Shown here piece after piece: positions 24,121 to 41,700 of a DNA stretch of 64,000 nucleotides. The stretch's first letter is position 1; each line of letters opens with the position of its first letter. Source of the stretch: an uncultured Methanosarcinaceae archaeon (GTDB lineage Archaea; Halobacteriota; Methanosarcinia; Methanosarcinales; Methanosarcinaceae); assembly GCA_963847185.1 (NCBI GenBank), contig CAWJYV010000001.1, forward strand, positions 270,843-334,842, in the 5' to 3' direction. The notes beneath the pieces were generated by a model. That model had not been told where the DNA came from, did no database searches, and saw only the letters and a list, made by a program, of their open reading frames with translations. The translations under genes and the position numbers were made by a program.

Positions 24121-25152
24121 TTATTCGAAAACTTTTGCGTCCACAACCACATGTAGAACACCGGGAGAATATTTCTTTATTCTGCGAGTCTCCAGGATTT
24201 CGACTTTTCTTCCCAGTGACTCGGCAGCTTTATTTATTCTTTCCTGAGGCCTTGTCCTGGCAAGATTTTCCGGAACTGTTTCATGATAATGCAGGACACC
24301 TCCACTTTTTTTCAGAGCCTTTATAGCAGATTCAAGATAGTGATGAGTGGTTCCCACATAACCCATTAATACGCGATCGGCTATCCCTTCCGGAGTGGAT
24401 TCAGAGCAGTCTCCACAAATAGGGACAATGATATCCTCTACATCATTTAACTTGATATTTTTCTCCAGGTAGGCAAAAGATTCAGGATTTATTTCAATGC
24501 TCATTATTTTTTTTGGCCTTGAGTGGACAGCCATGGGGATCGAGAAGTATCCTATTCCTGCAAACATGTCTACGACAAGCTCCCCTTTTCCCAACCTGCT
24601 CATCCTTTTTCTCTCTTCAAGGTTGCCTTTGGAATACATCACCTTTGTTACATCCTGATTGAAAAGGCAACCGTGCTCTTTATGGATGGTTTCCGTCCCG
24701 CTCCCGAGCAAAAGTTCTCTTTTTGGCTGGCGGAATTGCCCTTCTATCCCGAAATCTCTGACCACGCTCCTGCACTTTGGATGCAAGGAAAGCAGAGCTC
24801 TGGCTATAAGGAGTTTTTTTTCATCAAGGCTTTCAGGAATACTAACGATTATGATATCTCCCAAAATTTGCCAGCCTGATGGAACCACTTCCAGTTCTTT
24901 TTTTGAGAGATGCCCTTTCAGAGATTCCTTAAGAGACTTAGTCTCAGTTAGAAATTCAGGTTTTTCCTGTTCAATTACCGGAAAATCCCCTACTTTTTCT
25001 CCTGCAGCCTCAGTAACAGGAATTTCCAGAAAAGTATCTTCTGCGGTCTGGAGTTTTCGGATTTTTCTTGCAGTGTCCAGAAATTTTCCGTTGATTGCTT
25101 TTTCCCTGATTTCTTCCCCTTTTTCCGGGGGAACCCGAATTATTCTGTACAT
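24121..25152 (-). CDS. Met-10+/Trm5-TYW2 (Taw2-like) SAM-dependent tRNA modification transferase
   Basis: VMYSKGNLEER, VVDMFAGIGYF, EINP, DRVLMG, LHYHE and IKKYSPGV.HVVVD motifs. Confidence 0.88.
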   Translation of the reverse strand: MYRIIRVPPEKGEEIREKAINGKFLDTARKIRKLQTAEDTFLEIPVTEAAGEKVGDFPVIEQEKPEFLTETKSLKESLKGHLSKKELEVVPSGWQILGDIIIVSIPESLDEKKLLIARALLSLHPKCRSVVRDFGIEGQFRQPKRELLLGSGTETIHKEHGCLFNQDVTKVMYSKGNLEERKRMSRLGKGELVVDMFAGIGYFSIPMAVHSRPKKIMSIEINPESFAYLEKNIKLNDVEDIIVPICGDCSESTPEGIADRVLMGYVGTTHHYLESAIKALKKSGGVLHYHETVPENLARTRPQERINKAAESLGRKVEILETRRIKKYSPGVLHVVVDAKVFE

Positions 25153-25944: not shown

Positions 25945-25990
25945 ATTGGAAGTCTGATTTCAAAAAAGATGGTATTGTTTGCTATCCAAT

Positions 25991-28183
25991 ATGAAGCCAT
26001 ATGCCGATAATCTCGAACATCTTCTGGACGAACTTTCCAGAATAGATTTGCTAATACAAAGTTACGTTGATAGTTTTAGAGAAGAATTTCCTGAGACTGG
26101 AGACGAATTTAGAGGTCTTTATATATCAGAAGCTGAAATCGACCAGATCCAAAAAAATCCAGGTATTAGAAGCAAAAAGGGAAAATTGCAAGAGGTAAAA
26201 ATTGAAAAGTTTACGGAAATTGATTCAGTAAGAAATAAAATTAATGCCAAAAAAGAAGAAAGCCTTAAAAAAGGTATTGAACTAAGACTTCATATTCTTT
26301 CGGAACTTTTTTGTCTTGATTCTTTCGAGATAGATATTCTTTTAATCGGGCTTGCCCCGGAACTGGACCTCAAATATGAAAAGCTTTATTCATATCTTCA
26401 AAATGACGTGATGAAAAAAAAGCCGACCATAGATCTGATTCTGACTTTTCTCTTCCCAATAATCGAGGAAAAAATCAAAGCTAGAGCCTATTTTTCACCT
26501 TCTTCCTCCCTTCGAAAAAACCAGCTGATTCATCTATTGGATGGAGAAGCAAACTCAGGTTCCTCCCTGATATCTAACTCTATCAAAATCGATGAAAGAA
26601 TAATTAATTTTTTACTCGGGTTTGATGAGCTTGATCCAGGAATTCGGGATTCTTGTTATGTGATAAAGCCTGAAAAATCTTTTGATTACCTGATTCTGCC
26701 TGAGGATTTAAAAAGTAAGCTAGTAAAAATGGTAAGCTGGTACAGGGGAAACAGGTTTCCAATGAAGCTTTTGCTTTGCGGTACTTCAGGAAGTGGAAAA
26801 AAAACTGCCGCAGAAGCTGTCTGCAGGGAGACAGGAGCAAACCTTTTAATAGTGGATTCAAAAGTCCTGCTAGAAGGCAAGTCGATAGATACTGCAAATC
26901 TCATAATGCGAGAATCACTCCTGCAAAATTATGTGCTATATTTTCAAGCTTTTGATGTGTTTCTCGAAGACAAAGAAACAATAAATTATTCTGAAATTCT
27001 CATTCAGGCTCTAAAGGCCTTCCCTGGATGGATATTTTTAGCAGGAAAAAAACCTATGGAATTTGATAAAGATTTGATAAATAACGGTTTCGTCCCTTGT
27101 TCCTTTCCTCTGCCTTCATACTCGGTTCGTAAACAGTTATGGGAATCCTGCCTGAAAAATTATAAATTGGCCGAAGGGGTGGGCTTGAATGCGCTTGCGA
27201 GCAAATTCAAATTTAATGGCGGTCAAATAATAGATGCTGCCCGCACAGCATGCAGTTTTGCAGGAGAAAAAAATCCTGCTAGCCCGGTATTATCAATGGA
27301 AGAGCTCTATAAAGGCTGCAAAATACAGACTCACCACAAACTCAACTCCTTTGCCCTGAGAACCAGTCCGCATTATAAATGGGAAGATATTGTCCTTCCG
27401 AAAGACACTATGGAGCATTTAAAAGAGATTTCCAGCTTTATCAAATATAAAGGAAAGGTGCATTCCGACTGGGGCTTTGAAAAAAAATTATCTCTAGGAA
27501 AAGGCTTGAATGTTCTTTTTTCAGGTCCTCCCGGAACCGGAAAAACTATGGCTGCAGAAATTCTCGCAAATGAGGTAAAGCTTGATCTTTACAAAATTGA
27601 CCTTTCCAGTGTGGTCAGCAAGTACATAGGTGAGACAGAGAAAAATCTGAAGAAGATCTTTGATGAAGCTGAAACAAGCAATTCAATCCTCTTCTTTGAT
27701 GAAGCCGATGCCCTCTTTGGAAAACGTTCTGAAGTTAAGGATGCTCATGATAGGTATGCCAACATAGAGATCAGTTACCTGCTTCAAAAGATGGAAGAGT
27801 ATGAAGGAATTGTTATACTTGCGACAAACCTGCACGGAAATATCGATGATGCTTTTCTGAGGAGAATGCAATTTGTTATAGAGTTTCCATTCCCTGATGA
27901 AAAACTGCGATTGCAGATATGGACCAGGATTTTTCCGGAAGATGCGCCTCTTGCTAAGGATGTAAATTACAAGTTTTTCTCAGATAAATTAAAACTTGCT
28001 GGAGGAAATATTAAAAATATTGCACTTGCGGCGGCATTTCAAGCTGCAGAGGGGTCTTGCGATATCGGGATGCGTCAACTCATGCATGCTACAAAAAGAG
28101 AATATCAGAAAATCGGAAAACCTTTTTTGAAGGTAGACTTTGAGCCATATTACAAACTGATAGAATCGGAGGAGGTGCAATGA
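25991..28183 (+). CDS. eCIS AAA+ ATPase (Afp15/Pvc15-like) with N-terminal winged-helix-like region
   Basis: Degenerate first P-loop GTSGSGKK; second module GPPGTGKT, VVSKYIGETEKNL, LFFDEADALFGKR, DRYAN.E.SYLLQ and LATN. Confidence 0.92.
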   Translation: MKPYADNLEHLLDELSRIDLLIQSYVDSFREEFPETGDEFRGLYISEAEIDQIQKNPGIRSKKGKLQEVKIEKFTEIDSVRNKINAKKEESLKKGIELRLHILSELFCLDSFEIDILLIGLAPELDLKYEKLYSYLQNDVMKKKPTIDLILTFLFPIIEEKIKARAYFSPSSSLRKNQLIHLLDGEANSGSSLISNSIKIDERIINFLLGFDELDPGIRDSCYVIKPEKSFDYLILPEDLKSKLVKMVSWYRGNRFPMKLLLCGTSGSGKKTAAEAVCRETGANLLIVDSKVLLEGKSIDTANLIMRESLLQNYVLYFQAFDVFLEDKETINYSEILIQALKAFPGWIFLAGKKPMEFDKDLINNGFVPCSFPLPSYSVRKQLWESCLKNYKLAEGVGLNALASKFKFNGGQIIDAARTACSFAGEKNPASPVLSMEELYKGCKIQTHHKLNSFALRTSPHYKWEDIVLPKDTMEHLKEISSFIKYKGKVHSDWGFEKKLSLGKGLNVLFSGPPGTGKTMAAEILANEVKLDLYKIDLSSVVSKYIGETEKNLKKIFDEAETSNSILFFDEADALFGKRSEVKDAHDRYANIEISYLLQKMEEYEGIVILATNLHGNIDDAFLRRMQFVIEFPFPDEKLRLQIWTRIFPEDAPLAKDVNYKFFSDKLKLAGGNIKNIALAAAFQAAEGSCDIGMRQLMHATKREYQKIGKPFLKVDFEPYYKLIESEEVQ

Positions 28184-28755
28184 CAGTCTTAAGAGATGTA
28201 GGTATTACATTAAGGGAACTTATCCAGTCGAAGATTCCTGAACTTAAGGTCAACCAAAATTCGGTGGTCTTTGAATCTCCTGCAGATATTGTGCCAACAG
28301 GCAGCACAATAATGTCCGTATTTCTATATCAGATTGTAGAGAACGGTTTCTTGAGAAATATAGAACCTGAACCAATTGATATAACTCAAATGAAATACCC
28401 GCCTTTGACTCTTGATTTGTATTATATGTTCACTCCTTACGCTAAGGACAGAGAAACTGAGCTTCTGATCATGGAAGAACTTATGCAGTTCTTCCATGAT
28501 ACTTCTGTTTTAAAAGGAAACGTGCTTCAAGGTAACCTGGTAGCAGCGGGAAACAACGAAATAAGAATTATTCCCAATAATTTCACATTTGAGGAAATCA
28601 ACAAACTATGGGAAAGATTCCCTAACAAATCATACAAGCTATCAGCGTCCTATATTCTCAGCCCTGTTAGAATTCCATCAGCAAAAGACCCAGCCAAAAT
28701 TACAAGGGTTGTTAAAAAGGAAATTAACGTGTACAGGCAGGAGGTTGACATATGA
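28180..28755 (+). CDS. DUF4255 / Pvc16-Afp16-like tail terminator (cap)
   Basis: FLYQIVEN..LRN, PPL.LDLYYM.T and LW..F...YKLS.SY; overlaps the ATPase stop. Confidence 0.85.
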   Translation: MTVLRDVGITLRELIQSKIPELKVNQNSVVFESPADIVPTGSTIMSVFLYQIVENGFLRNIEPEPIDITQMKYPPLTLDLYYMFTPYAKDRETELLIMEELMQFFHDTSVLKGNVLQGNLVAAGNNEIRIIPNNFTFEEINKLWERFPNKSYKLSASYILSPVRIPSAKDPAKITRVVKKEINVYRQEVDI

Positions 28756-29084
28756 TCTTCCTCGAAAGGATAGAATCAAACCTTACTCTGGCAGTCTTGT
28801 TAAAGGATGATTTGTCCCCTGATAAAAAAGCCTTTGGAAATTTGTTCTTAAGTGTTCCGAGTAAAAGAAAAGATATTATCAGGAGCAATACCGGACATTT
28901 TCTTTTAATAGACCTCCCTGAGATAAATCAGACTATTACCGGCGGCGGGGAGTACTATAATAACTGTAGCCTCGCGATTGATTACACACATGGGAAGTTG
29001 TATGCTGACAATAACGAGGTTGATCCTAAAAATCCTGTAGTCAGTATAACTTTGAGTCCAAAATCCAATTATCCTTTTCCATAA
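28752..29084 (+). CDS. Hypothetical eCIS-associated beta-sandwich protein, possibly C-terminally truncated
   Basis: Translationally coupled to DUF4255; N.TG.F...DLP and L.P...YPFP, with a stop immediately after YPFP. Confidence 0.55.
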   Translation: MIFLERIESNLTLAVLLKDDLSPDKKAFGNLFLSVPSKRKDIIRSNTGHFLLIDLPEINQTITGGGEYYNNCSLAIDYTHGKLYADNNEVDPKNPVVSITLSPKSNYPFP

Positions 29085-29214
29085 GGACTGTGCCTCCGGA
29101 TATTAAAAAGATAGGTATAAACCTACAAAGCAGGCCGTTCCTTTGAAAAAGGGGCTAACTACACATGCTGATACATCAATACTTACCAAACCGTAGGAGG
29201 TGTTTTAACAAATA

Positions 29215-29331
29215 TAGGACTTACGCAGTTGAGGTTCAAAATCAAGGCAACAGACATCATTGCCAAATCTATGATTTAGACAGTTGAAGGTTCAACGCCT
29301 TTGATTATTCAGTTCAACTGCGTAAATCCTA
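29215..29331. mobile_element. 117-bp MITE (TAGGACTTACGCA-type TIR family), copy 2
   Basis: TIRs TAGGACTTACGCAGTTGA / TCAACTGCGTAAATCCTA; 5-bp TSD AAATA (29210-29214 / 29332-29336). Confidence 0.9.
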
Positions 29332-29615
29332 AAATATTGGTAGCATTATATCAAGATTTTAAGAAAAATATCGATTTTAGCAGATGGGCAGTATTATATA
29401 GAATACTACACCCGTTACAAGAGTACACTCTTACGTTTGATATATAATATGACACTTTAACGAATTTACCTTAATTTTCTATTTTTAAACTTTCTACTTT
29501 TTGGTTAAATATTGAGTTTACAGAGAGAATTCTATATTCAATACAATTCATTCCCATGACTGTACAGGAAATTTAAAGGAATTAAACATCTTTAATTTGA
29601 TAAAGGAGGTATAAT

Positions 29616-31466
29616 ATGACTGAATATCTTTCACCAGGAGTATATGTCGAGGAAAAGTCCTCCGGGGTAAAGCCTATTGAAGGCGTCGGCACTTCGACCG
29701 GGGCTTTTGTTGGAATTGCAGAAAAAGGACCGGTAGGAGAAGCAAACCTGATTGCAAATTGGACTCAGTTTGTTAATAAGTACGGAGCCTTTACTGACAA
29801 AGCATATCTGGCATATGCAGTTTATCAGTTCTTTGCAGAAGGAGGAACTCGATGCTATGTAGTAAGGACATGCCATTATACGGATATAACGAACAAATCT
29901 TCAAAGACAACTAAGGCTGCAACAGCGACCCTGAACGATAGCGCTGCTTCTCCTGCAGCATCTTTAAAATTCACGGCATTGGAAGAAGGTACATGGGGCG
30001 AAAAAATTACCATCGAAGCAAAAGATGCCACTGATACTACCCTAACAAGTGGATTCAAGCTGGTTGTAAAATATGATGAAGATGAGCAAGAGTCCTTCGA
30101 TAATCTTACGATGGGAAATGTCCTGGACGAAGTAAAGAGCTCAGCGTATATCAAAGTTGAAAAGGTAGGAACTACTGCTCCCAAGAAAGGTACATCTGTG
30201 ACCCTTAAAGGCGGAAGTAACGGTGCCGCCGCCCGTTCAACAGGAAACTTGAACGATAGCGCTACTCCTGCTGTAGGATCGCTGAAATTCACAGCGTTGA
30301 ATGATGGTGCTTGGGGTGATAAAATTTCCATCGAAGCAAAAAGCGCCACTGATACTGCACTAGCAAATGGATTCAAGCTGGTTGTAAAATTTGAAGGTAT
30401 TGAGCAGGAGTCCTTTGATAACCTTACAATGGAAAATGTATTGGAAAAAGTAAAAAGTTCGGCATATATCAAAGTTGAAAAGATAGGATCTACTCCCAAT
30501 GCTCCCAAAAAAGATACATCTGTGACTCTTAAAGACGCAAATGCCTCCTCTCTTATTGTAGCGGATTTTGAAGGCGATGCAAAGGCAGGAAACGGTCTCC
30601 ATGCGTTCGATGTGGTAGATGATATCAATATCGTTGCCATGCCGGATAGTGCAAATATTCTCACTACTGCTGCGAATAAATTTGGACCTAGAAACGCTAT
30701 TATAAAGGGTTATAGTTACTGCCAGAACAGGGGGGATTGCTTCTTTATTGCGGATTCACCAAAGGAACTTAGTCCTACTCAAGTTAAGGATTTTAAAGAG
30801 GCAAAGGGAGATTATAACGGACAAAACTCGTTTAACTCTTCATTTGCAGCTCTCTACTACCCATGGGTCTATATAAGTGATCCACTAGGTGGAACGAAAT
30901 TAGTTCCCCCATCAGGTGCAGTTGCTGGAACATATGCCCATACAGATTCAGTGAGGGGAGTACATAAAGCACCCGCAGGAACTTCGGAAGGTTATCTTGA
31001 TTCTGTAAGCGGTATAGAAAGGATTATTACAAAAAGTGAACATGATACTTTGAACCAACCAGGGATAAATGTCATTCGTTCGTTCCCGACAGCAGGGATA
31101 TGCATATGGGGGGCACGGACACTATCCTCCGACTCTGAATGGAAGTATATAAACATTAGAAGATTATTTCTTTTCCTGGAAGAATCCCTTGACGAGGCTA
31201 CCCAGTGGGTAGTATTTGAGCCTAATTCCCCAGCTCTGTGGGGCTCGATAATAAGAAATATAACCGCTTTTTTGCTAAGGGTTTGGAGAGACGGAGCTCT
31301 GTACGGGGCTACACCTGAAGAAGCTTTTTTTGTCAAAGTTGATGAAGAGAACAATCCGGAAGAAGTAAGGAATGTCGGGCAGCTGGTCATTGAAGTCGGA
31401 GTAGCACCTGTAAGACCTGCGGAATTCGTAATAATCAGAATCAAGCAGAAGACTCAGTCAAAATAA
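29616..31466 (+). CDS. Contractile tail sheath protein with a tandemly duplicated ~97-aa insertion domain
   Basis: YLSPGVYVEE, AFVG, AALYYPW, VPPSGAVAG, GVHKAPA, GINVIR, WGARTL, YINIRR, WVVFEPN and PVRPAEF; strong AAGGAGGT RBS. Confidence 0.96.
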   Translation: MTEYLSPGVYVEEKSSGVKPIEGVGTSTGAFVGIAEKGPVGEANLIANWTQFVNKYGAFTDKAYLAYAVYQFFAEGGTRCYVVRTCHYTDITNKSSKTTKAATATLNDSAASPAASLKFTALEEGTWGEKITIEAKDATDTTLTSGFKLVVKYDEDEQESFDNLTMGNVLDEVKSSAYIKVEKVGTTAPKKGTSVTLKGGSNGAAARSTGNLNDSATPAVGSLKFTALNDGAWGDKISIEAKSATDTALANGFKLVVKFEGIEQESFDNLTMENVLEKVKSSAYIKVEKIGSTPNAPKKDTSVTLKDANASSLIVADFEGDAKAGNGLHAFDVVDDINIVAMPDSANILTTAANKFGPRNAIIKGYSYCQNRGDCFFIADSPKELSPTQVKDFKEAKGDYNGQNSFNSSFAALYYPWVYISDPLGGTKLVPPSGAVAGTYAHTDSVRGVHKAPAGTSEGYLDSVSGIERIITKSEHDTLNQPGINVIRSFPTAGICIWGARTLSSDSEWKYINIRRLFLFLEESLDEATQWVVFEPNSPALWGSIIRNITAFLLRVWRDGALYGATPEEAFFVKVDEENNPEEVRNVGQLVIEVGVAPVRPAEFVIIRIKQKTQSK

Positions 31467-31490
31467 CTGTAAATTAAGGAGGAATACATT

Positions 31491-31934
31491 ATGGCAACAG
31501 CCTCAAGAAGTGATCCGTATAGAAACTTTAGATTCAAAGTCGAAATCGATGGGATAAAAACCGCAAGCTTTGCAGAAGCTACTATCCCGGATACAACAAC
31601 AGACTCTGTTGACTACAGAGAAGGTACGGATTTACCGTACCAGAGAAAGCTTTCGGGTCTCACCAAGTACGGGAACATAACATTAAAGAAAGGATTAACG
31701 GATTCGATGGAACTGTATACATGGAGAAAACTTGTGGAAGATTCCGGTGCAAGCAAAGCAAGAAAGAGCATCTCAATCGTATTGATTGATGAGGAAGGTA
31801 ATGATAAATCCAGATGGGATATCATAGAAGCATGGCCAACTAAGTATTCTTCAGCCGGTTTTGATGCAAAAGGAAATGCTGTGGTAATAGAATCCTTAGA
31901 GTTAGTGCATGAAGGGATAAAGAGAACGAAGTAA
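31491..31934 (+). CDS. Tail tube protein (T4 gp19-like), tube 1
   Basis: DPYRNFRFKVEIDG, YREG, NITLKKG, AWPTKY and ESLELVHEG. Confidence 0.95.
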   Translation: MATASRSDPYRNFRFKVEIDGIKTASFAEATIPDTTTDSVDYREGTDLPYQRKLSGLTKYGNITLKKGLTDSMELYTWRKLVEDSGASKARKSISIVLIDEEGNDKSRWDIIEAWPTKYSSAGFDAKGNAVVIESLELVHEGIKRTK

Positions 31935-31956
31935 GGATTAGACAAGAGGAAGCTAA

Positions 31957-32325
31957 ATGGGAGTTTTACAGACCGAATATGATTTTTCCCTGCCTCTGGG
32001 ATATGCGGACGAATCTGGTACTCTTCACAAAACGGGTAAAATGAGACTTGCCACTGCAGCTGATGAGATACTGCCTATGAAGGACCCGAGGGTACAGAGT
32101 AATCCTGCGTATCTGACTATCATTTTACTTTCCAGAGTTGTTACTCGCCTTGGAGACTTGAAGATGGTAACTCCGCTTGTTATTGAAGGTCTTTTTGCAG
32201 CGGACTTCGCATATCTTCAGGAAATGTATACAAGAATTAATCAGAATGGTTCAAATGTAATCAAAACAGTATGCCCGAAATGTGAACACAGGTTCGATGT
32301 AGAGGTACAGTCTCCGGGGGAATAA
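31957..32325 (+). CDS. Tail assembly chaperone-like protein (gpG-like)
   Basis: TEY.F.LP.GY.D..G.LH..G.MRLATA.DEI, LLSRV, DF.YLQ..Y and a CPKC motif; ends in CCG GGG GAA TAA. Confidence 0.8.
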   Translation: MGVLQTEYDFSLPLGYADESGTLHKTGKMRLATAADEILPMKDPRVQSNPAYLTIILLSRVVTRLGDLKMVTPLVIEGLFAADFAYLQEMYTRINQNGSNVIKTVCPKCEHRFDVEVQSPGE

Positions 32326-32504
32326 TAGGCTACCCCCAAGAATGCCTCTATGAAGAGGTAGCCTTTTTAGCTTACCATTTTCACTGGGATTACGAGACTA
32401 TTATGAATATGGAACATCGAGAGAGGCAGCAATGGTGTGAGGAAGTGAACAAGATAAATAATAAACTTAACGCTAAGGAATCGAAAAGTATTCTAGACAT
32501 TTAG
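32322..32504 (+). CDS. DUF6760-like ORF (gpT-like), not in the ORF track; has no canonical start and is probably expressed by -1 frameshift from the upstream gene
   Basis: Manual translation: IIGYPQECLYEEVAFLAYHFHWDYETIMNMEHRERQQWCEEVNKINNKLNAKESKSILDI*. The in-frame upstream stop is at 32283, with no ATG/GTG/TTG before the conserved LYEEVA..AYHFHW block. Confidence 0.8.
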   Translation: MIGYPQECLYEEVAFLAYHFHWDYETIMNMEHRERQQWCEEVNKINNKLNAKESKSILDI

Positions 32505-32512
32505 GAGGAGCG

Positions 32513-32938
32513 ATGACAGTTGGAGCCCGGAAGGATCCCTATAGTGGTTATAATTTTGTCGTGGAAATAGAGGGCATCCTGGCAGCTGGATTTACCGAGG
32601 TTTCAGGCTTGAGTATGCAAACAGAAGTTGATACCATAAAAGAAGGAGGAGTGAATAATTATGAGCATAAGCTTCCCAGAGGGATAAAATATTCGGATAT
32701 TACATTAAAACGCGGGCTTATGGATCGGGAACTCTGGGCATGGTATCGAAGGACTGTACATGGAAATATTGAAAGAAAAAGCGGTACTATAAGTCTTCGT
32801 GACCATTCCGGAAAAACCGTACTGAGCTGGTTTTTCTTTGATGCATTTCCCATTAAGTGGGAAGGACCCGCACTAAATGCAGCTTCAAATACAGTTGCCA
32901 GTGAGACACTTGTCCTGGCGCATCAGGGTCTCATATAA
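32513..32938 (+). CDS. Tail tube protein (gp19-like), tube 2 (Afp5-like)
   Basis: DPY..YNFVVEIEG, GFTEVSGL, EGGVN, ITLKRG and AFPIKWEGP.LNA. Confidence 0.93.
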   Translation: MTVGARKDPYSGYNFVVEIEGILAAGFTEVSGLSMQTEVDTIKEGGVNNYEHKLPRGIKYSDITLKRGLMDRELWAWYRRTVHGNIERKSGTISLRDHSGKTVLSWFFFDAFPIKWEGPALNAASNTVASETLVLAHQGLI

Positions 32939-32941
32939 TGG

Positions 32942-34681
32942 GTGATTATTGTTCGCTTTCAAAGAAACTATAAAATTATGAGCTCAAATAAGATATTTAC
33001 TGGATCCAATGGTCTGAAGATTAATATACCGAAGTTCGCTATCGGACAGAATAGTTCAAACTTTTCGATGAAGATTGTCGGAAAGTATAATGTATTCCAT
33101 AAGTCCGACAGTCTGCCAGCTTTGATATTCCGTAGATTATCTGACGTAAAAACGAATAATAAGTCATTATATAACGAACCATTCAATATTTTTATAAGTT
33201 TTCAAAATTTCAATGATTTCATCAATCAATTCCAAAAAACTTTAAAGCTGCTCAGTAATTCGATTATAGCAACCAGTGATGTTCATTCATGCATCAACGC
33301 TCTAACATTAAAGAGATATAGCAGTCCAGCCTCCAAATATCCGGAAGTAAAGCGTTATGCTTTTCCAGTAATTGCTACTGGAAAAACTGATGGCATATCA
33401 GGCAGAAAAACGGATACTATAGTAGCCTATCAAAAAGCGCTTAATTTTAACACTTCAACTAACATAGAAATTGTCACTCAGGACATAGAGAAGCCATTTT
33501 TCAAGAAGACGGAAACTGATCCACAGTACGGAAATAATGCAACCGGGCAAATAAGAGAAAGAAAAAAACAATTCATAATGACGTTTAATCAGTATCCCTC
33601 ATACAGAAATATTCTGATATCGGAAAATCCAGTGACTCGGAGTTATTTATACAACAATTTTAATTTTGGGCTCTCAGGTCCAGAGCACAGTCTGACAATC
33701 GCAAGTACAAATAAGACGGATGAAGCTTCAGAAGACGTAAAAGCTGTCACTCCAAGAGCAGACATACCGTCCAAAGTTTCTGCAAACCCGATTTTTCTTG
33801 ATTATATGCATAGTAGAAATATCGATGTATCCGGTTCAGAACCTAACAGGATAATATATGCAGCAAAAAAGGTGGATGCATCTTTAACAGGAAATTTTGG
33901 AACCTCTAAGAGCACTGACTCTCAGAGCACTTATACATTATCTCCCCTGCAAACCAGGAATTCAAAAAATGAGAACAATAGTACTTCCGGACAAGCAGGA
34001 GAAGGTAAAATACAGCTAATTACGGAGTTACAAAGCCTTTATTTTCCCGCCAAATCAAAAATAATATCATTGAACTCCATGAATTCCAGGCATTTACAGC
34101 GAGCACTTAATTTCAAATCAGTCAATTCTAAATTTGAGATGGATTTTTTCAGTACAAAGACTGCAGATAAAGCTTCAACTGTTATATCTCCGGCTTTGCA
34201 AGGAATTGATTCATCATTTCAGCAAATAGGGAACGTGCAGAATCTGAAATACGGATACTTCTTTAACAATGATATTAAACTTACAGGGCGAAACGTGGCT
34301 TCTGTTTTCAAAGATAAAAGGATACTGAGAAAAAGTACCGCTCCATCTCAGGATAATGTTTTCCCATATCCACTGACCGATTTCAAGTACGTTAACGGGT
34401 TCATGAAAAGAAACAGATTATATGAAGTTGGTGAAGACCCTGTATATGACTCAAGGGAACTTGTTCTCAAAAAAACCTTCCCTCAAAAAGTTGAGGTAGT
34501 TTCCGAGAATAATAAAGGGATTCAGACCGAAAATGTCTCTCCAGGCAGGATACGCAACGATCTGGATAAAAAAATGATGGATGAAAAACCGGTACGTGAG
34601 ATCGAGATTATAGCAGATAAGGTATACAAAATCATAGAGAGAAGAATTTCAATCGAAAAAGATAGGAGAGGCTTGTTCTAA
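32942..34681 (+). CDS. Putative tape-measure / Afp14-like low-complexity protein (ATG alternative at 32978)
   Basis: Located between tube 2 and the LysM initiator; S/N/K-rich poorly conserved body with a C-terminal IADKVYKIIERRISIEKDRRG helix. Confidence 0.5.
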   Translation: MIIVRFQRNYKIMSSNKIFTGSNGLKINIPKFAIGQNSSNFSMKIVGKYNVFHKSDSLPALIFRRLSDVKTNNKSLYNEPFNIFISFQNFNDFINQFQKTLKLLSNSIIATSDVHSCINALTLKRYSSPASKYPEVKRYAFPVIATGKTDGISGRKTDTIVAYQKALNFNTSTNIEIVTQDIEKPFFKKTETDPQYGNNATGQIRERKKQFIMTFNQYPSYRNILISENPVTRSYLYNNFNFGLSGPEHSLTIASTNKTDEASEDVKAVTPRADIPSKVSANPIFLDYMHSRNIDVSGSEPNRIIYAAKKVDASLTGNFGTSKSTDSQSTYTLSPLQTRNSKNENNSTSGQAGEGKIQLITELQSLYFPAKSKIISLNSMNSRHLQRALNFKSVNSKFEMDFFSTKTADKASTVISPALQGIDSSFQQIGNVQNLKYGYFFNNDIKLTGRNVASVFKDKRILRKSTAPSQDNVFPYPLTDFKYVNGFMKRNRLYEVGEDPVYDSRELVLKKTFPQKVEVVSENNKGIQTENVSPGRIRNDLDKKMMDEKPVREIEIIADKVYKIIERRISIEKDRRGLF

Positions 34682-35289
34682 TGGTGGAGAAGGCAAAAAT
34701 AAAAGTTGAAGATACCGGGGATATTATCGATGTGATGTTCAATCCAAATGAATATACTGTTTCAACTGCAGCAGAGTTAAGCACCGAAAAATCAAACCCC
34801 TTTTTTAATAAGGTAACACTGGATGATTTTACTGTCAAACTAACTTTTGATACTTACGAAAAAAAAACAGATGTAAGGAAACTCACAAATAAAATCGGAA
34901 AACTTGTTATGCCCACTGTCGAAGGAGCAGAAAGGAAAAAGCCTCCAGTTTGTCTTTTTATCTGGGGCAACTTCACATACAAGGGCATAATCTATAAAGT
35001 TAGCCAAAAGTTTACACTTTTCCTTTCAGACGGGACTCCAGTTAGAGCGGAGTTGACTGTTACCTTTAAAGCCCTCGTGACACCTGAAGAGTATGCAAAA
35101 AATATGGGTATCGAGGCCTGCAGGAAGGTTTGGACTGTGAAAAGCGGTGACAGACTCGACCTCATAGCTAATAAAGCGCTTAAAGATCCAGCCCTCTGGA
35201 GAAGAATAGCAGAAGAAAATAATATTGACAACCCTCTGGCATTTCCAAAGGATAGCGATATTGGCAGAATATTAATAATTCCTGATTAA
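34681..35289 (+). CDS. CIS tube initiator protein with C-terminal LysM (Afp7/Pvc7-like)
   Basis: VMFNPNEY, FDTYE, PP.CLF.WG, F..DGTPVRA and VKSGDRLDLIA...WRRIAEEN.IDNP. Confidence 0.9.
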   Translation: MVEKAKIKVEDTGDIIDVMFNPNEYTVSTAAELSTEKSNPFFNKVTLDDFTVKLTFDTYEKKTDVRKLTNKIGKLVMPTVEGAERKKPPVCLFIWGNFTYKGIIYKVSQKFTLFLSDGTPVRAELTVTFKALVTPEEYAKNMGIEACRKVWTVKSGDRLDLIANKALKDPALWRRIAEENNIDNPLAFPKDSDIGRILIIPD

Positions 35290-35302
35290 GGAGTCTTACT
35301 CG

Positions 35303-36352
35303 ATGGCAGAGGACCCGTTAAATGTTTCCTATTTCAAATTGCTCTTAAATGGAACTGAACTTTCGAACGAGCTAGTTCCAGCAGTTCATGGAATTACCCT
35401 AGAAGATGAACTTAATCTGCCGTCAATGTTTACGATCAAGTTCGACACCGTCGACGGTATAAAAGGTGCATGGAGGGGCATTGATCTTAAAACTTTCAAA
35501 ATGGGGGATACAGTAAAGGTTTCTATGGGTATCGATAGCGCAGTCGATATGATGACAGGTGAGATCACCTCACTGGACTACAATTTTGGAGATTCATGTT
35601 TCATGGATATAAGAGGCTATGACAGACTTCACAGATTGAGATTCGGAACTATGAGACGCTCATTTAAAAATATGAAGGATAGTGATATCGCATTATCCAT
35701 TGCATCGGAGCTCAGTTTGACCTCAGATACCGAAGATACGGGAACTGTCCATCCCTATATATTCCAAAGTAACCAGAGTAATTATGAGTTCCTTATAGAT
35801 CGCGCCAAGCGAATAGGATATGAAATTCTAGTAGATGATAAGACTTTGATATTTCGAAAATCAAAGGAAGACAAATCACCAGAGGTAACTCTAGAATATG
35901 GTAAAGATCTCCAAAGTTTCTTTGTCCAGATAAAGACTCTGACAGAAGGTAGTAAAGTAGAAGTCAGGGGCTGGAATGTCAAAGACAAAGAGGAGATTAG
36001 TTCTATAGCCTCAAAAGGAAGTGAAAAAACTAAAATGTCAGGAACAGAATCAGGCTATGAAATGTCTGAAAAAGCATTCCTTGCATCATCGGTTTCTATT
36101 GTGGATGATGTAGTTCTTGATTCAAAAGATGCGGAAGATATTGCAAAGGCGAAATATAACAGTATGCTCAAAGAGTTCCTGACAGGAGAGGGGGAATGTG
36201 CTGGGAATCCGAAAATAAGAGCTGGAAAGACAATTGAAATTAAAGGCTTAGGTGACAGGTTGAGTGGAACCTATTATGTCATATCAACGGCTCATTCTAT
36301 AAAAAAGGGAGCATACATGACCACGTTTAGAGTAAGGAGAACAGGAATATGA
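35303..36352 (+). CDS. Baseplate hub (phage late control D / gp27-like; VgrG N-terminal half)
   Basis: PSMF.I, G.D.LHRL..G...R.F..MKDSDIA, Q.N.S.YEFL..RA.RIGY, VEVRGW and G.G.RLSG.Y.V....H. Confidence 0.9.
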   Translation: MAEDPLNVSYFKLLLNGTELSNELVPAVHGITLEDELNLPSMFTIKFDTVDGIKGAWRGIDLKTFKMGDTVKVSMGIDSAVDMMTGEITSLDYNFGDSCFMDIRGYDRLHRLRFGTMRRSFKNMKDSDIALSIASELSLTSDTEDTGTVHPYIFQSNQSNYEFLIDRAKRIGYEILVDDKTLIFRKSKEDKSPEVTLEYGKDLQSFFVQIKTLTEGSKVEVRGWNVKDKEEISSIASKGSEKTKMSGTESGYEMSEKAFLASSVSIVDDVVLDSKDAEDIAKAKYNSMLKEFLTGEGECAGNPKIRAGKTIEIKGLGDRLSGTYYVISTAHSIKKGAYMTTFRVRRTGI

Positions 36353-37032
36353 GCATTACAGGGATTCTTGAGCAGAGCAGAAGAGCCGAATCCAAAATTT
36401 ATGGAGTTGTGGTCGGGATTGTCACCAATAATAAGGACCCTGATTCTCTTGGCCGTGTCAAGGTAAAAATCACCCGAATAAGTGGAGAGGATGAATCCAA
36501 CTGGGCAAGGGTTATTTCGTTCATGGCAGGAAAAGAACGAGGTGCTTTTTACTTACCTGAAGTGGATGATGAAGTGCTTGTAGCTTTCGAATACGGTGAC
36601 ATAAATCTCCCTTATGTAATCGGTTCCTTATGGAATGGCAAGGATAGGCCCCCCCTTACAAACGACGACGGAAAGAATAATCTCAGGGTTATTAAATCTC
36701 GAAGCGGCCATATAATACGGCTTGATGACACGGAGGGACAGGAGAAAATCGAGATTGTGGATAAAACTGAAAAAAATATAGTTGTAATCGACTCAAAAGA
36801 AAACAAGATCTCCATTAAATCCGAGAAAGACATAGAGATATCTGCACCAAATGGGAAAGTAACAATTGGAGCAAAAGAAATCGAAATAAAATCTTCTGGA
36901 TCCACAAAGATCGAAGCAAAAGAAATTGAAGCAAAAGCCTCTTCATCCGCAAAGGTCGAAGCTTCATCGAGCATGGATCTTAGGGCTTCTGGAAATCTGA
37001 AAATAAAAGGGGCAACAGTGAACATAAACTGA
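36349..37032 (+). CDS. Spike protein (baseplate assembly protein V / gp5 OB fold; VgrG C-terminal half)
   Basis: GVVVGIVT.NKDP..LGRVKV, WARV, LPEVDDEVLVAFE.GD...PYVIG.LWNG, SRSGH and a beta-helix tail ending ..G..VNIN. Confidence 0.93.
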   Translation: MSITGILEQSRRAESKIYGVVVGIVTNNKDPDSLGRVKVKITRISGEDESNWARVISFMAGKERGAFYLPEVDDEVLVAFEYGDINLPYVIGSLWNGKDRPPLTNDDGKNNLRVIKSRSGHIIRLDDTEGQEKIEIVDKTEKNIVVIDSKENKISIKSEKDIEISAPNGKVTIGAKEIEIKSSGSTKIEAKEIEAKASSSAKVEASSSMDLRASGNLKIKGATVNIN

Positions 37033-37451: not shown

Positions 37452-37946
37452 ATTTATTAGTTAATTTCATCTTGCAAAACTTAGATTCTTCATGATCCCG
37501 AGTGAATGACTCAACTTCATGTTCGGCAGTGTAGCGAATTTGCTGTAAATTTGAAGTCAATTTTTTGTGTAAGATGAGGACAATTGATCTTCGGATATGT
37601 AATTTTCTACTCAACAACTTTTTGAAATTTGTGATTTTACAGAAAAATCTACACAATGCCTCATGTTCTAAATATTTCGATATAGAAATATTTGAGAACA
37701 TTTAATATGAGAACCCATTTTCAAGCATTATATTTTCTCTTTGGCTTTGTCAATTATTAAAGGAGAGTCATTTCAATTTACAAAGAAGAGTGAAGATTCA
37801 TTCTTTGTTTTAGGACAAATAAAGCTTATTTTTTCTGAGTTTTGAGTTTAAAATGTATTTTTGCAGAAAATACCATTTTATGCGCTTAATATGGAAATAA
37901 CTGATTTTATCCCTATTTGTAAACCAATTTGAAGGATGGATTAATT

Positions 37947-38345
37947 ATGGGGCAACCAGCAGCTAAACAGGGAGATCAGATCATGGCAACAGATATCCAT
38001 ATAATTATGATACCTGCAGCTCCAGCGCCGCCGATCCCAACGCCTTTACCCCACCCTTTTATGGGTATAATAAACGGAAACCTCAGCTCTGATGTGAAAA
38101 TAATGGGGATGCCTGCGGCTACTGTTGATTCTACAGCAACGAACACACCACCCCATATTCCTCAAGGTGGGCCTTTTCAGAAACCGCCATCTAACAAGGC
38201 CACGATAAAGCTGGGAAGCACTACAGTGAAGATAAATGGAAAAATGGCAGCAAGAAACGGAGATATGGCTATGACATGTAATGACCCATCGGATATGCCT
38301 GCTGGAACCGTAGTGGCAGTCGGCACGGTCTTAATAGGGGGATGA
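37947..38345 (+). CDS. PAAR domain spike-tip protein
   Basis: MGQPAAKQGD, PHPF.G, VKI.GMPAA and GS.TVKINGK.AAR.GD....C.D; ends ..VLIGG. Confidence 0.92.
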   Translation: MGQPAAKQGDQIMATDIHIIMIPAAPAPPIPTPLPHPFMGIINGNLSSDVKIMGMPAATVDSTATNTPPHIPQGGPFQKPPSNKATIKLGSTTVKINGKMAARNGDMAMTCNDPSDMPAGTVVAVGTVLIGG

Positions 38346-38346
38346 A

Positions 38347-38745
38347 ATGGAGATCACTGATTTTTTAGGCAGTGGGTGGAAGTATCCGATATCTATTAAG
38401 AATGGCAAGATAGTTCCATCTGTAGGAGAAGATTCCATCAGAGAATCGGTTATAATTATTATCACTACGGCAAAAGGCGAACGCGCCATGAGGCCTGATT
38501 TTGGCTGCGAGATCAATGAACTTGTTTTTGCACAGAACAACACTTCAACGGCAGGGCTAATACAGTTTTACGTAAAAGAGGCACTGTTGAAATGGGAGCC
38601 CAGGATTGAAGTACTTGATGTATCTGTAATCCATGATGAAGATGAAAGAGACAAACTCTTCATAAATATTGAGTATATGGTAAAAACTACAAACACGAAG
38701 GATAACCTGGTTTATCCCTTTTATCTTGACAAAGGTGGGGTCTAA
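38347..38745 (+). CDS. GPW/gp25 family baseplate protein (Afp9-like)
   Basis: FLGSGW.YP, T.KGER.MRPDFGC, WEPRI and NLVYPFY. Confidence 0.95.
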   Translation: MEITDFLGSGWKYPISIKNGKIVPSVGEDSIRESVIIIITTAKGERAMRPDFGCEINELVFAQNNTSTAGLIQFYVKEALLKWEPRIEVLDVSVIHDEDERDKLFINIEYMVKTTNTKDNLVYPFYLDKGGV

Positions 38746-41700
38746 TGCCAGTTGATGCGCCGAAAATCTATCCAATGGATAAAGTAAAACTTGTAGAGCA
38801 GATTCAGAAACTGGCCTTTGAGTATTGCTCATCCGAGTGTCTTCCTGAAGCCTGGAAAGATCTTTCATCCATTCAGTCAGATGAGAAGGCAGATGCCTTA
38901 ATAAACATCTTTGCCAGGATGATGGAGATTATTATTCATAGATTAAATAAGGTGCCGGATAAAAATTTTCTGACTTTTCTGGATCTTATCGGAGTAAGCC
39001 TTTCCCCACCCAGGTCTGCACGCGTCCCTCTTACTTTTACAATGGCCAGTGGGGCAAATAAGTATGGTTTAATTCCTGCATGGACCCAGGTTGCTACAGC
39101 AGAAACTGCAGGACAGGAAGCTGTTGTTTTTGAGACAGAAAAAGCCCTGACGGTTATTTTACCAAAGCTTGTCAAAGCTGTCAGTCTTTCTCCTGCTGAT
39201 GACAAATGGACTGACAATAGTCAGGTCTTGTTTAACAATACTGGAGAAGTAATTGAACTTTTCAGAGGAAAAAACCTGATATCTCATCGTTTATATCTTG
39301 GTCAAAGCAAGCTTTTCAGTTTTAAAGAAGAGACAGCTATTACTCTAGATCTAGATATAAAGATCCCTACTGGTTTCCAGGAACTGGATAAATGGCAGGT
39401 AAAATGGTATTATTTTGATGAAAAATCAGTGCCAAAGATCTTGGATATCGAAAAAACTGAGCCTTCAGATCAAAATGTGATTGACTGGGAAGTTGTTAAT
39501 CTATTAAAAAGTGGATCTATCACTTTCAAACCTGTTGCTGGAATTTCAGAAAAGACATTATCTGGAATTGAAAAAGAAAAAAATCAAAAAAATAACTGGG
39601 TCAATAATTGGATATTTGCAGAATTGAGCACCCCCATTCCTGCAGAAAATTTGCCGACAATCGATACTGTCAATGCAACTGTGAATATCAGTTCTAAATC
39701 GTCTATAGTTCCAGATCTAGCCTTTTTCAATAATTTTCCTCTTGATTTGAGCAAGGATTTTTATCCTTATGGAGAACGACCTAAATTCAATGATACTTTT
39801 TACATCGGCTCAAAAGAGGCCTTTTCTAAAAAGGATGCAGCAATAAGTATGATCGTAACTCTTTCCACGGGAGTGGATGCACCGCTGGCAAGTGAAAAGA
39901 GAAAAATCTGCTGGGAATCATGGAACGGAAGCGATTGGGAAACAGTTAGCGTTAAAACAAAAGATGATCCGCCTATAGTGAATTACGATTTTGCGGGTAA
40001 AAAAGGCGAAAAGAAGATAGTGACTTTCACATGCCCTAATATCGAGGAAAAAGAGATCAACGGAGAAAAAAGCCGCTGGATTCGCGTACGCATTAGTGAA
40101 GGGGATTATGGCCAGGAAGCCAGATATGAAGAGGCACCGACATTTAAAGGTTCAGGAACAATTAGCTACAGTAAAGAGATTGCTATCAGTGGCAAAGAAA
40201 CGCACTTTCTAAGAGAAATCAGAATAGGTGACTCTATTGTCGTAATAAAAAGTCAGATAGGAACTCAAACCAGAACAGTTACTTCAATTGCTTCAGATAA
40301 TTCTCTCACCATTGATTCGCCTTTTAGCGATATTAATGAAACGGAGTTTTATATTAAAAAAATCGGATGGACGTACATACCTGCAACTTATAAGCCTCCG
40401 TCCATAAGCGAACTGACTCTGCAATACAGTTTTAGTTCTAAGGATATTCCTGAGATCATTCTAACATATAACAATTTCGCCTATCATGACGAAACTAAAA
40501 AACCCTTCACTCCATTCCAGCCAGTAGCAGATACTCAGCCAGCTCTTTATCTTGCTTTTGACCAGGATATTTCTACTCTGCCCGTAACTATTTTCTTCCC
40601 CTTGATTAGAAAGACCATTAGTACAAAAAAAGCACCGGTTCCGTTAAATGGTACAGGAACGATATCAAGTAACAATATAACATTAACAGGTACAGGAACA
40701 AACTTTAAGGAGAAATTTAAAGTTGGAGATTCCATAGCAGCAACAGGTCAAGTGAGAACAGTTATATTCATTAGTTCAGACATTTCTCTTAACGTCGATT
40801 CTCCTTTTAATCCTGCACTCCAGGTAGGGACAAAATTCTCCTATACATCCTCACATGAAGAAGTCCAGAATATTCCCTTCCTAATCTGGCAATACTGGAC
40901 AGGCAAGGAATGGAATAAACTGAAGATTGAAGATAGTACAAATAACCTGACAAAAAGAGAATTGATTCAATTTCTTGCCCCTGCAGATGTTGTAAAGAGA
41001 TCCTGTTTCGGTTTTGAATTAGAACACTACTGGATACGAGTGGTTATTGAAAAAGGGAATTATGACGATTTTCCGATCATTAAGGCGATATATACCAACA
41101 CCGTCTGGGCACATAATATGGTCACAGTAAAAGATGAGATACTGGGCTTTAGTAACGGAAAACCAGATCAAACATTCAGTTTCTCCCAATCTCCAATATT
41201 GAGAGGGCAAAAAGTCCTGGTAAGAGAATTATCTCTCTCTGAAGAAGGTAAGAGGACCATAATTTCCGAAGAAGGAGACGATGCCATTGAGGAAATTACT
41301 GATGAAGCTGGCGATATTACCGGTTCCTGGGTACGCTGGCATGAAGTGAAGAACTTTTATTTCTCAAAGCCTAACAGCCGGCATTATATAATAGACCTTA
41401 ACAACGGAAACATAACCTTTGGGAATGGGGAAAGAGGTATGATCCCTCCAGCAGGGAAGAATAATATCAAATGCAGCTACCAAGCCGGAGGTGGTGTGAA
41501 AGGAAATGTTCAGGCAGGCACTATAACTAAGCTAAGAACAACATTTCCCTATATTGATTCAGTAACCAATCATGAAACTGCCTCTGGCGGAGACGATAAA
41601 GAGAATCTTGACAGGGTTCGGGAGCGTGGGCCACAAACTCTTAAACATCGCGACAGAGCTGTCACCTACGAAGATTTTGAGTGGTTAGTTAGGGAGGCAT

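Follow-up and report, generated by a model that had tools for sequence, protein, structure and literature searches.

A probable G/GT-type -1 ribosomal frameshift joining a tail assembly chaperone to DUF6760 in an archaeal contractile injection system

The window analysed here is a stretch of 64,000 nucleotides (nt) from an uncultured Methanosarcinaceae archaeon (assembly GCA_963847185.1, contig CAWJYV010000001.1, positions 270,843 to 334,842), and it carries the genes of an extracellular contractile injection system (eCIS). The tail assembly chaperone gene of this system is very likely decoded with a programmed -1 ribosomal frameshift of the G/GT type known from long-tailed phages, which would give a short product of 122 amino acids (aa) and a long product of 182 aa ending in the domain DUF6760. 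This reading, based on sequence comparison, follows from the -1 geometry of two overlapping frames, the placement of a slippery heptamer, a second frame that is mostly startless, and the fusion of both parts in a sister family. A first-pass annotation of the window had already proposed a frameshift of this type with products of 122 aa and about 182 aa; its sequence-level predictions hold across relatives, and the two products would be those expected from them.

The chaperone open reading frame (ORF) occupies positions 31957-32325 of the plus strand, and the tube gene before it ends 22 nt upstream of its ATG. Its 3' end reads TCT CCG GGG GAA TAA (32311-32325) in the frame of ATG 31957, and the product ends in VQSPGE; sequence and translation both agree with the first-pass description of this end. 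The -1 frame has a TGA at 32283-32285, followed by 72 open codons (32286-32501) and a TAG at 32502-32504. It contains no ATG, GTG or TTG, and is listed only as a stop-to-stop ORF, being absent from the ORF list that requires a start. The six-frame and ORF listings thus bear out the statement that the frame is startless after the stop at 32283. The frame matches the Pfam family DUF6760 (PF20546) over its residues 16-67, with an E-value of 6.7e-17 and a score of 61.8 bits where the cut-off is 27, as expected from the intact 60-aa DUF6760-like domain that had been placed outside the ORF track. DUF6760 is present in a single copy according to a six-frame search of the whole genome.

The 122-aa chaperone matches PHROG 508, 'tail assembly chaperone' (E 1.6e-8), and has a CxxC motif near its C-terminus. 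It has at least 7990 homologues, some of which carry the NCBI name 'phage tail assembly protein'. It matches no Pfam family at E <= 10, PF12322 included, and NCBIfam gives no match for the chaperone, DUF6760, a 579-aa ORF further downstream or two neighbouring ORFs. Among solved structures, the profiles of the chaperone and DUF6760 have no sequence relative at E <= 1 beyond chance-level rows. An AlphaFold2 model of the window-type chaperone, built on an alignment of 17 sequences, has a mean predicted local distance difference test (pLDDT) of 52.3, too low to serve for a fold search, and the predicted complex of the tube protein with DUF6760 scores 0.00, with the fold of the partner uncertain, a result that speaks neither for nor against binding. 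The heptamer GGGGGAA occurs 8 times in the window against 8.68 expected, which is the chance level, and the full heptamer-spacer-stem-start pattern is unique in the window with 0 expected. The frequency of the heptamer alone is therefore uninformative, and it is the conservation of its position across relatives that marks a non-chance element.

Related junctions were assembled from two sets. A six-frame search of 61 genomes of the genus and the order with the DUF6760 model gave 20 loci in the 17 genomes with matches, and a search of one genome per prokaryotic species gave 439 confirmed stretches, of which the best-scoring 80 were fetched. After removal of identical 96-nt junctions, 85 distinct junctions from 99 loci were kept. 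Since loci were collected at the protein level, with a protein model and degenerate peptide patterns, the search should not have selected codon choice. The junctions come from archaea and at least eight bacterial groups, and the fetched records include Methanoperedens, Methanosarcina, Methanolobus, Methanomethylovorans, ANME-1, ANME-3, Bacillota, Nitrospirota, Brocadiaceae, NC10, WOR-3, SAR324, Spirochaetia, Pseudomonadota and others. The first-pass annotation had framed the element as one of an archaeal eCIS; the archaeal cassette is real, but it is not specific to archaea, as the same cassette occurs in many bacterial phyla.

The DUF6760 frame is the -1 frame relative to the chaperone homologue (58-96% identity) in all 99 loci that keep the junction, including 20 out of 20 in the first set. 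The hundredth locus, L017, is a deletion form without the junction and without the first half of DUF6760. Four loci that appeared deviant on the automatic scan (L047, L058, L066 and L092) have a normal junction on inspection; unrelated foreign sequence replaces the upstream chaperone end in L047, with the cassette kept, and in L066 the -1 frame stays open over a long stretch. Among 401 sampled Pseudomonadota genomes, 8 had matches, at 9 loci in all. The cassette is present in L101, L103 and L109 of this sample, some of which may duplicate loci already counted from the same genome. Two chaperone homologues have other arrangements: in P0006 (211 aa) the chaperone domain is repeated in tandem and DUF6760 is lacking, and P0098 (134 aa) reads past the junction in another frame, perhaps via an insertion or deletion (indel) in the G run of the contig.

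An alignment of the junction across eCIS loci had been suggested with the first-pass annotation, and in it both GGGGGAA (76/85 distinct junctions) and the -1 geometry (99/99 loci) are conserved. The heptamer, at 32316-32322 in the window (G GGG GAA), stands at the same position in those 76 junctions, exactly 5 nt upstream of the stem of a predicted hairpin. Eight of the 85 have other G-run heptamers there (GGGGGGA in four, GGGGAAA in two, GGGGGGG and GGGGGAG in one each), and a single junction, L016, has a broken run, GAGGGAA. The first base of the heptamer is G in 85/85; the preceding codon, which may be Gln, Pro, Leu, Ser, Met or others, always ends in G. The spacer is also 5 nt in all 85, and in the window it is TAATA (32323-32327), containing the zero-frame stop TAA at 32323-32325. 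This heptamer has been described in about a thousand SEA-PHAGES chaperone motifs (PMC10885494) and as a slip site with a downstream RNA structure (PMC5506516), and these accounts back its first-pass identification as a phage chaperone slip site.

The zero-frame stop directly follows the heptamer in 77 of the 85 junctions, comes one codon later in six and 12 codons later in two. Heptamer, spacer and stem are unchanged in all eight junctions with a displaced stop, so the stop itself is not the conserved element. In the two late-stop junctions (L058 and L092) the chaperone ends at a TAG inside the 3' arm of the stem. Over the 85 junctions the zero-frame stops are TAA (46), TAG (27) and TGA (12). 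Read in the chaperone frame, the 3' arm gives AGG AGG TAG, a back-up stop that lies at 32357-32359 in the window and at the same place in all relatives.

The first-pass annotation named only the heptamer as the signal; the heptamer is conserved, and a conserved downstream hairpin was overlooked. In the window the predicted stimulatory hairpin spans 32328-32363, with the 5' arm at 32328-32339, the loop at 32340-32351 and the 3' arm at 32352-32363. Its consensus arms, GGCUACCCCCUC on the 5' side and GAGGAGGUAGCC on the 3' side, pair with each other over the 12-nt loop, with one constant C.A mismatch. Across the 85 sequences, 88.2% of the alignment cells of the 12-bp stem pair, compared with 36-59% after a shift of the partners by 1-3 columns. 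Three stem pairs vary on both sides, in 10 cells in all. The end pair changes from G-C to A-U (GGC..GCC to AGC..GCT) in seven sequences (Fisher p 1.9e-4, uncorrected for phylogeny), and the loop-side pair changes from C-G to G-C in L015 and L016. When folding is restricted to the nucleotides after the heptamer, which mimics a ribosome seated on it, the stem lies within the minimum-energy fold with at least 10 pairs in 70/85, and the median hairpin energy over the 85 junctions is -18.0 kcal/mol.

The strongest sign of selection on the RNA itself is the near-freezing of synonymous sites in the two arms. Gly is encoded by GGC in 69/69 cases, Tyr by TAC in 85/85, Pro by CCC in 80/85, Glu by GAG in 81/82 and 85/85 at its two positions, and Val by GTA in 85/85, and the first arm codon is always xGC, whether it encodes Gly, Ser or Arg. 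Tyr codons in the loop and the rest of the gene are mixed (TAC 54 and TAT 25; TAT 49 and TAC 33), as are other codons outside the arms (Glu, GAA 51 and GAG 34; His, 44 and 41; Ala, four codons). Downstream of the stem the amino acids of DUF6760 are conserved and synonymous change is free.

The frame that encodes DUF6760 mostly has no start of its own. From the upstream stop, which lies a median of 30 nt before the codon for Gly, to the conserved Gly-Tyr-Pro, no ATG, GTG or TTG is present in the -1 frame in 53/85. DUF6760 is mostly missed by gene callers because it is startless: only 52 called DUF6760 proteins were found against the at least 7990 chaperone homologues, two numbers that allow no strict comparison, since a query this short provides few words. 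The called proteins begin at a spacer ATG or GTG or at an upstream start in the -1 frame. It is possible to imagine that DUF6760 is a separate protein, made by termination and reinitiation at the codon that overlaps the stop (AUA here, AUG with TGA), with the G run resembling a Shine-Dalgarno (SD) sequence. The codon that overlaps the stop in the -1 frame is indeed ATA or ATG in nearly all junctions (ATG in 13/85, with a subsequent GTG in 6/85), and databases contain 60-aa 'DUF6760 family proteins' that begin at the spacer. GGGGG could also pair with the anti-SD CCUCC, so that such a role of the G run is conceivable on general grounds.

Separate initiation nevertheless appears improbable, given the 53 junctions without a canonical start. 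The spacer ATG of 13 junctions arises because the chaperone terminates with TGA. As TGA creates an ATG without any change to the chaperone, an initiation route would be expected to favour it, yet it is the rarest of the three stops. The G run ends 1 nt before the AUA, whereas the AGGAGGAG of the next gene sits 4 nt upstream of its ATG at 32513, and a stable hairpin 3 nt past the would-be start should hinder initiation. Reinitiation would also leave unexplained the fixed first G in 85/85, the constancy of the junction where the stop has moved, and the in-frame fusions described below.

A fused product could in principle also arise by transcriptional slippage, with the RNA polymerase adding one G in the five-G run in a fraction of the mRNAs. 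One added G puts DUF6760 in frame, and fusions of this kind are known to arise by homopolymer slippage (PMC5009743). The hairpin 5 nt downstream would still be untranscribed while the polymerase is on the run, so its placement suits a ribosomal stimulator, and the final AA of the heptamer is conserved as well. Runs usually reported to slip during transcription are longer than five G. A contig from a metatranscriptome library, of a relative about 95% identical to the window, spans 32263-32839 and so includes the end of the chaperone gene, all of the DUF6760 frame and the greater part of the second tube gene, and no indel is listed in it at the G run; this is weak evidence, since contigs drop rare variants. 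The sequencing-run cover consists of contigs of that relative, which do not prove transcription, and a rare inserted G, the expression level and a single transcript are all beyond their resolution. With these points together, transcriptional slippage is very improbable. A second junction variant, with one extra codon before the stop, occurs as a loose end in the same RNA-library sample.

There is likewise very little likelihood that DUF6760 is a relic that lost its start codon in this genome and is no longer made. The window has no start codon for it and has the weakest stem of the set, as a relic might. The startless state is found in those same 53 junctions of several phyla, in which the downstream amino acids are conserved with free synonymous change, and the frame in the window is intact for 72 codons and retains the Pfam score of 61.8 bits.

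Under the frameshift reading, most ribosomes would read 31957-32325 and stop at the TAA, giving the 122-aa chaperone. A minority would pause, stalled by the hairpin at 32328-32363, with tRNA-Gly on GGG 32317-32319 in the P site and tRNA-Glu on GAA 32320-32322 in the A site. On slipping back by one base, tRNA-Gly would re-pair perfectly on GGG, and tRNA-Glu would re-pair on GGA with a central G:U; G:U re-pairing on GGGGGAA is discussed in PMC10885494. Alternatively, the P-site tRNA-Gly alone may slip before the A site is filled. The slipped ribosomes would then read ATA ATA GGC TAC and onward to the TAG at 32502. The -1 extension would thus consist of 60 codons (32322-32501) and the stop (32502-32504), and the product would have the chaperone as its N-terminal part and the helical DUF6760 as its C-terminal part. 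If both tRNAs slip, the junction would read Ser-Pro-Gly-Glu-Ile-Ile-Gly-Tyr-Pro; if only the P-site tRNA slips, Gly would replace Glu. The Gly given at the junction in the first-pass annotation would thus be right for P-site slippage only, with Glu expected if both tRNAs slip. The long product would have 182 residues and the short one 122 under either mode.

By analogy with lambda G and GT, the chaperone part would coat or hold the protein that determines the length, tube subunits would be recruited by the DUF6760 part, and both parts would be absent from the finished particle. Absence from the finished particle fits with the lack of a sequence relative among solved eCIS structures. The ratio of G to GT is near 30:1 in lambda, and the frequency of frameshifting is two to three times higher in P2-like phages (PMC5009743).

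A sister family carries both parts in one frame. In five of the nine loci from the Pseudomonadota sample (L104-L108), chaperone-like and DUF6760-like parts lie in one ORF of about 290-300 aa, which directly follows the tube gene in L105 and L107, where ORFs were listed (for example L105:1504-2406, minus strand). The fused proteins match Pfam T4_baseplate (PF12322, E 1.1e-15) and DUF6760 (E 5.2e-6, just under the cut-off) as well as PHROG 150, 'baseplate hub', and one additionally matches PHROG 508. With E-value limits of 1e-3, 1e-10 and 1e-30 the family has 6298, 2576 and 249 representatives, respectively, and most of the top 150 align end to end. In profile-profile comparison its first 116 columns resemble the window-type chaperone (98.6%, E 1.3e-15) and columns 252-292 resemble DUF6760 (97.8%, E 7.8e-13). 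Counted by eye, the CxxC and the conserved Leu-Tyr of DUF6760 are similarly spaced, about 29 residues apart in the fused proteins and 26 in the predicted trans-frame product. One polypeptide with both parts is therefore a normal state of the superfamily, and one that the frameshift would produce here.

An AlphaFold2 model from 47 fused sequences (pLDDT 95.8, predicted template modelling score 0.92) has two alpha/beta units followed by three DUF6760-like helices. Proteins of the fused family consist of two chaperone-like repeats and a DUF6760-like helical end. At E <= 0.001, 66 predicted viral proteins match the model, with names that include 'baseplate hub assembly protein, bacteriophage T4-like', 'baseplate hub subunit' and 'baseplate hub assembly chaperone'. 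Its two best matches among solved chains are YqbN (3klu_A) at Z 6.5 and, at Z 6.4 over 99 residues with a root mean square deviation of 3.9, the HK97 tail assembly chaperone (2ob9_B). Both lie below the confidence line of Z 8 and give weak fold support to a tail assembly chaperone, and a Foldseek search of the model against the PDB gave nothing at E <= 0.001.

It is quite possible, if somewhat short of probable, that the chaperone/DUF6760 pair represents a split version, joined by frameshifting, of what is a single protein in the T4-like 'baseplate hub assembly protein' family. The T4-like group would then have a permanently fused GT, and the cassette would be a portable -1 signal for bacterial and archaeal ribosomes, portable because it moved with eCIS loci across two domains. 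T4 is named as the long-tailed phage that lacks a G/GT frameshift (PMC5009743), so this family may be its fused counterpart.

Several points weigh against the frameshift. The evidence for it is comparative throughout, and we infer the slippage itself on the archaeal ribosomes of this organism. The heptamer is not a canonical X XXY YYZ, and the 80 stretches fetched in the second set were the best-scoring ones; L102, a locus further removed from the window, has GGGGGCC, and its stem shows hardly any pairing. A start is present in the spacer in 19/85 (ATG in 13, GTG in 6), and another 13 junctions have one only upstream of the heptamer; separate initiation is possible in both groups. A search for longer proteins in the DUF6760 frame found no in-frame fusion among close relatives in 36 candidates, which is weak evidence; the fusions described above all belong to a distant family. 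None of 500 shuffles matches the observed paired share or covariation score, in a control that ignores relatedness. Six of the 12 stem pairs are invariant and one constant C.A mismatch is present, so the covariation rests on the 10 variable cells. The arms encode the conserved Gly-Tyr-Pro and Glu-Glu-Val-Ala, so part of their conservation is at the protein level.

The window itself has the weakest hairpin of the 85, at -11.3 kcal/mol with 8/12 pairs. The relative with about 95% identity has G instead of A at 32354, which restores one pair. Given all 96 columns, RNAalifold pairs the G run with the C run inside the 5' arm in a 5-bp helix, and adds another downstream helix in place of the stem; the minimum-energy fold of the window also has the G-run helix, with a z of only -1.52. 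This G-run helix (window 32316-32337, alignment columns 22-26 with 39-43) would compete with the stem when the ribosome is absent. A ribosome on the heptamer precludes the G-run helix, and the two structures therefore need not conflict.

The chaperone lies within a complete contractile-injection-system gene cluster of an Afp/PVC-like eCIS. Judged from the names of its close homologues and of related contigs, the host belongs with Candidatus Methanoperedens and its relatives and is a methane-oxidising archaeon. Sheath, tube, spike, PAAR, gp25 and baseplate J genes are all found by Pfam in one cluster on the plus strand, as in an eCIS, and both the AAA+ ATPase (Afp15-like) and the Pvc16-type cap, hallmarks of eCIS, are present. 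The cluster includes the ATPase gene at 25979-28183 (Pfam WHD, E 1.2e-57; AAA, E 1.9e-39), the gene for the Pvc16_N cap or terminator-like protein at 28180-28755 (PF14065, E 6.9e-40) and the tail sheath gene at 29616-31466 (Phage_sheath_1C, E 1.4e-16; Phage_sheath_1, E 1.4e-13). The T4 gp19-like tube gene (31491-31934; PF06841, E 6.4e-45) precedes the chaperone, and a second tube paralogue follows DUF6760 (32513-32938; PF06841, E 1.1e-40). Further downstream are the 579-aa ORF (32942-34681), the gene for a tube-initiator-like CIS_tube protein (34681-35289; PF19266, E 1.2e-24, with a weak P2 gpU match), spike and hub genes at 35303-37032 (GPD-like, 35303-36352; Phage_base_V, 36349-37032) and baseplate genes at 37929-42719 (PAAR, 37929-38345; gp25, 38347-38745; Baseplate_J, 38745-42719), all on the plus strand and assigned by Pfam except for the 579-aa ORF. 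No head, portal or terminase genes are present among the 20 ORFs scanned between 21103 and 46339, and a promoter and terminator scan of 29000-35500 gave nothing exceeding shuffled controls.

According to the first-pass annotation, the frameshift would support a tape-measure role for the 579-aa ORF. The order of genes fits this: sheath, tube, chaperone with its -1 extension, extra tube, 579-aa ORF, tube-initiator-like protein and gpD-like hub, which resembles, apart from the extra tube, the sheath, tube, E/E', T, U and D order of P2. The second tube gene stands between the chaperone and this ORF. The ORF has no match in Pfam, NCBIfam or PHROG, its matches in the Atlas are only unnamed clusters with low recognition, and BLASTP against the 461-aa ORF that occupies this place in L105 gave no match. 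A tape measure is thus plausible by gene order and position only, and no family or sequence support was found for it.

Two neighbouring genes on the minus strand adjoin the cluster. A gene for a TRM5/TYW2-type tRNA methyltransferase lies at 24121-25152 (Pfam, E 2.1e-63). Modifications of the TRM5/TYW2 kind at tRNA position 37 affect frame keeping, and the location of this gene beside the eCIS cluster is probably a coincidence. Just upstream of the cluster, a 761-aa ORF (21103-23388) has an M6-type peptidase domain and a proprotein-convertase P domain, and could be an eCIS cargo or unrelated.

The arrangement has close counterparts in phages. The G/GT model has been described as conserved in long-tailed phages (PMC5009743). 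Lambda gpG/gpGT and P2 gpE/gpE+E', whose -1 frameshift lies between the genes for the tube or major tail protein and the tape measure, likewise have a short chaperone ORF after the tube gene, a startless -1 ORF overlapping its end, a slippery heptamer at the overlap and a stop close behind. Here, in contrast, the locus is a cellular eCIS with an AAA+ ATPase and a Pvc16 cap, a second tube gene comes before the candidate tape measure, and the -1 part is DUF6760, for which no link to lambda T or P2 E' was found. The chaperone sites of actinobacteriophages and corynephages have the identical heptamer GGGGGAA; the putative stimulator differs here in being a simple 12-bp hairpin within conserved codons at a fixed distance of 5 nt. 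G-T frameshifts have been predicted in the tailed haloarchaeal viruses HCTV-1, HCTV-2, HCTV-5 and HSTV-2 (PMC5009743), which is likewise a chaperone frameshift for archaeal ribosomes. Those are viral genomes of halophiles, whereas this is a chromosomal eCIS of a Methanoperedens-like archaeon with a cassette common to bacteria.

The T4-like 'baseplate hub assembly protein' (PF12322, PHROG 150) corresponds at the profile level to the chaperone in its N-terminal part and to DUF6760 in its C-terminal helices, but members of that family are read in a single frame, without a frameshift, and with their length of about 290-300 aa they contain two chaperone-like repeats. The Afp6/Alg6 'plug' is likewise a small protein among eCIS tube genes, and is needed for assembly (PMC8894135). 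Alg6 is described as a strand and a single helix; it remains in the spike cavity, and its gene comes after an Afp5-type tube gene, whereas DUF6760 is startless and encoded before that gene. DUF6760 was not equated with the plug, as no similarity was found.

No mention of DUF6760 was found in the literature covered, with subscription journals outside that coverage, and titles and abstracts gave no description of a chaperone frameshift in eCIS. The eCIS survey by Chen et al. 2019 (PMC6899500) uses neither 'chaperone' nor 'frameshift' in its main text, and its supplementary gene tables, or those of other eCIS surveys, could list the pair. The G/GT device and its heptamer are thus known from phages, and are found here in a cellular eCIS lineage common to archaea and bacteria, with DUF6760 as the part that would be encoded by the frameshift. 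As eCIS descend from phage tails, this is unsurprising in principle.

DUF6760, a domain of unknown function, gains a testable role from this reading. A widespread eCIS lineage may have a hidden assembly factor of 182 aa, which would be relevant to the expression and engineering of particles from cloned operons. The many independent cellular examples of one -1 cassette would also provide a ready system for comparing how archaeal and bacterial ribosomes respond to a slippery site with a hairpin. The link to T4-like hub assembly, the boldest by-product of the analysis, may explain the long-noted exception to the G/GT scheme.

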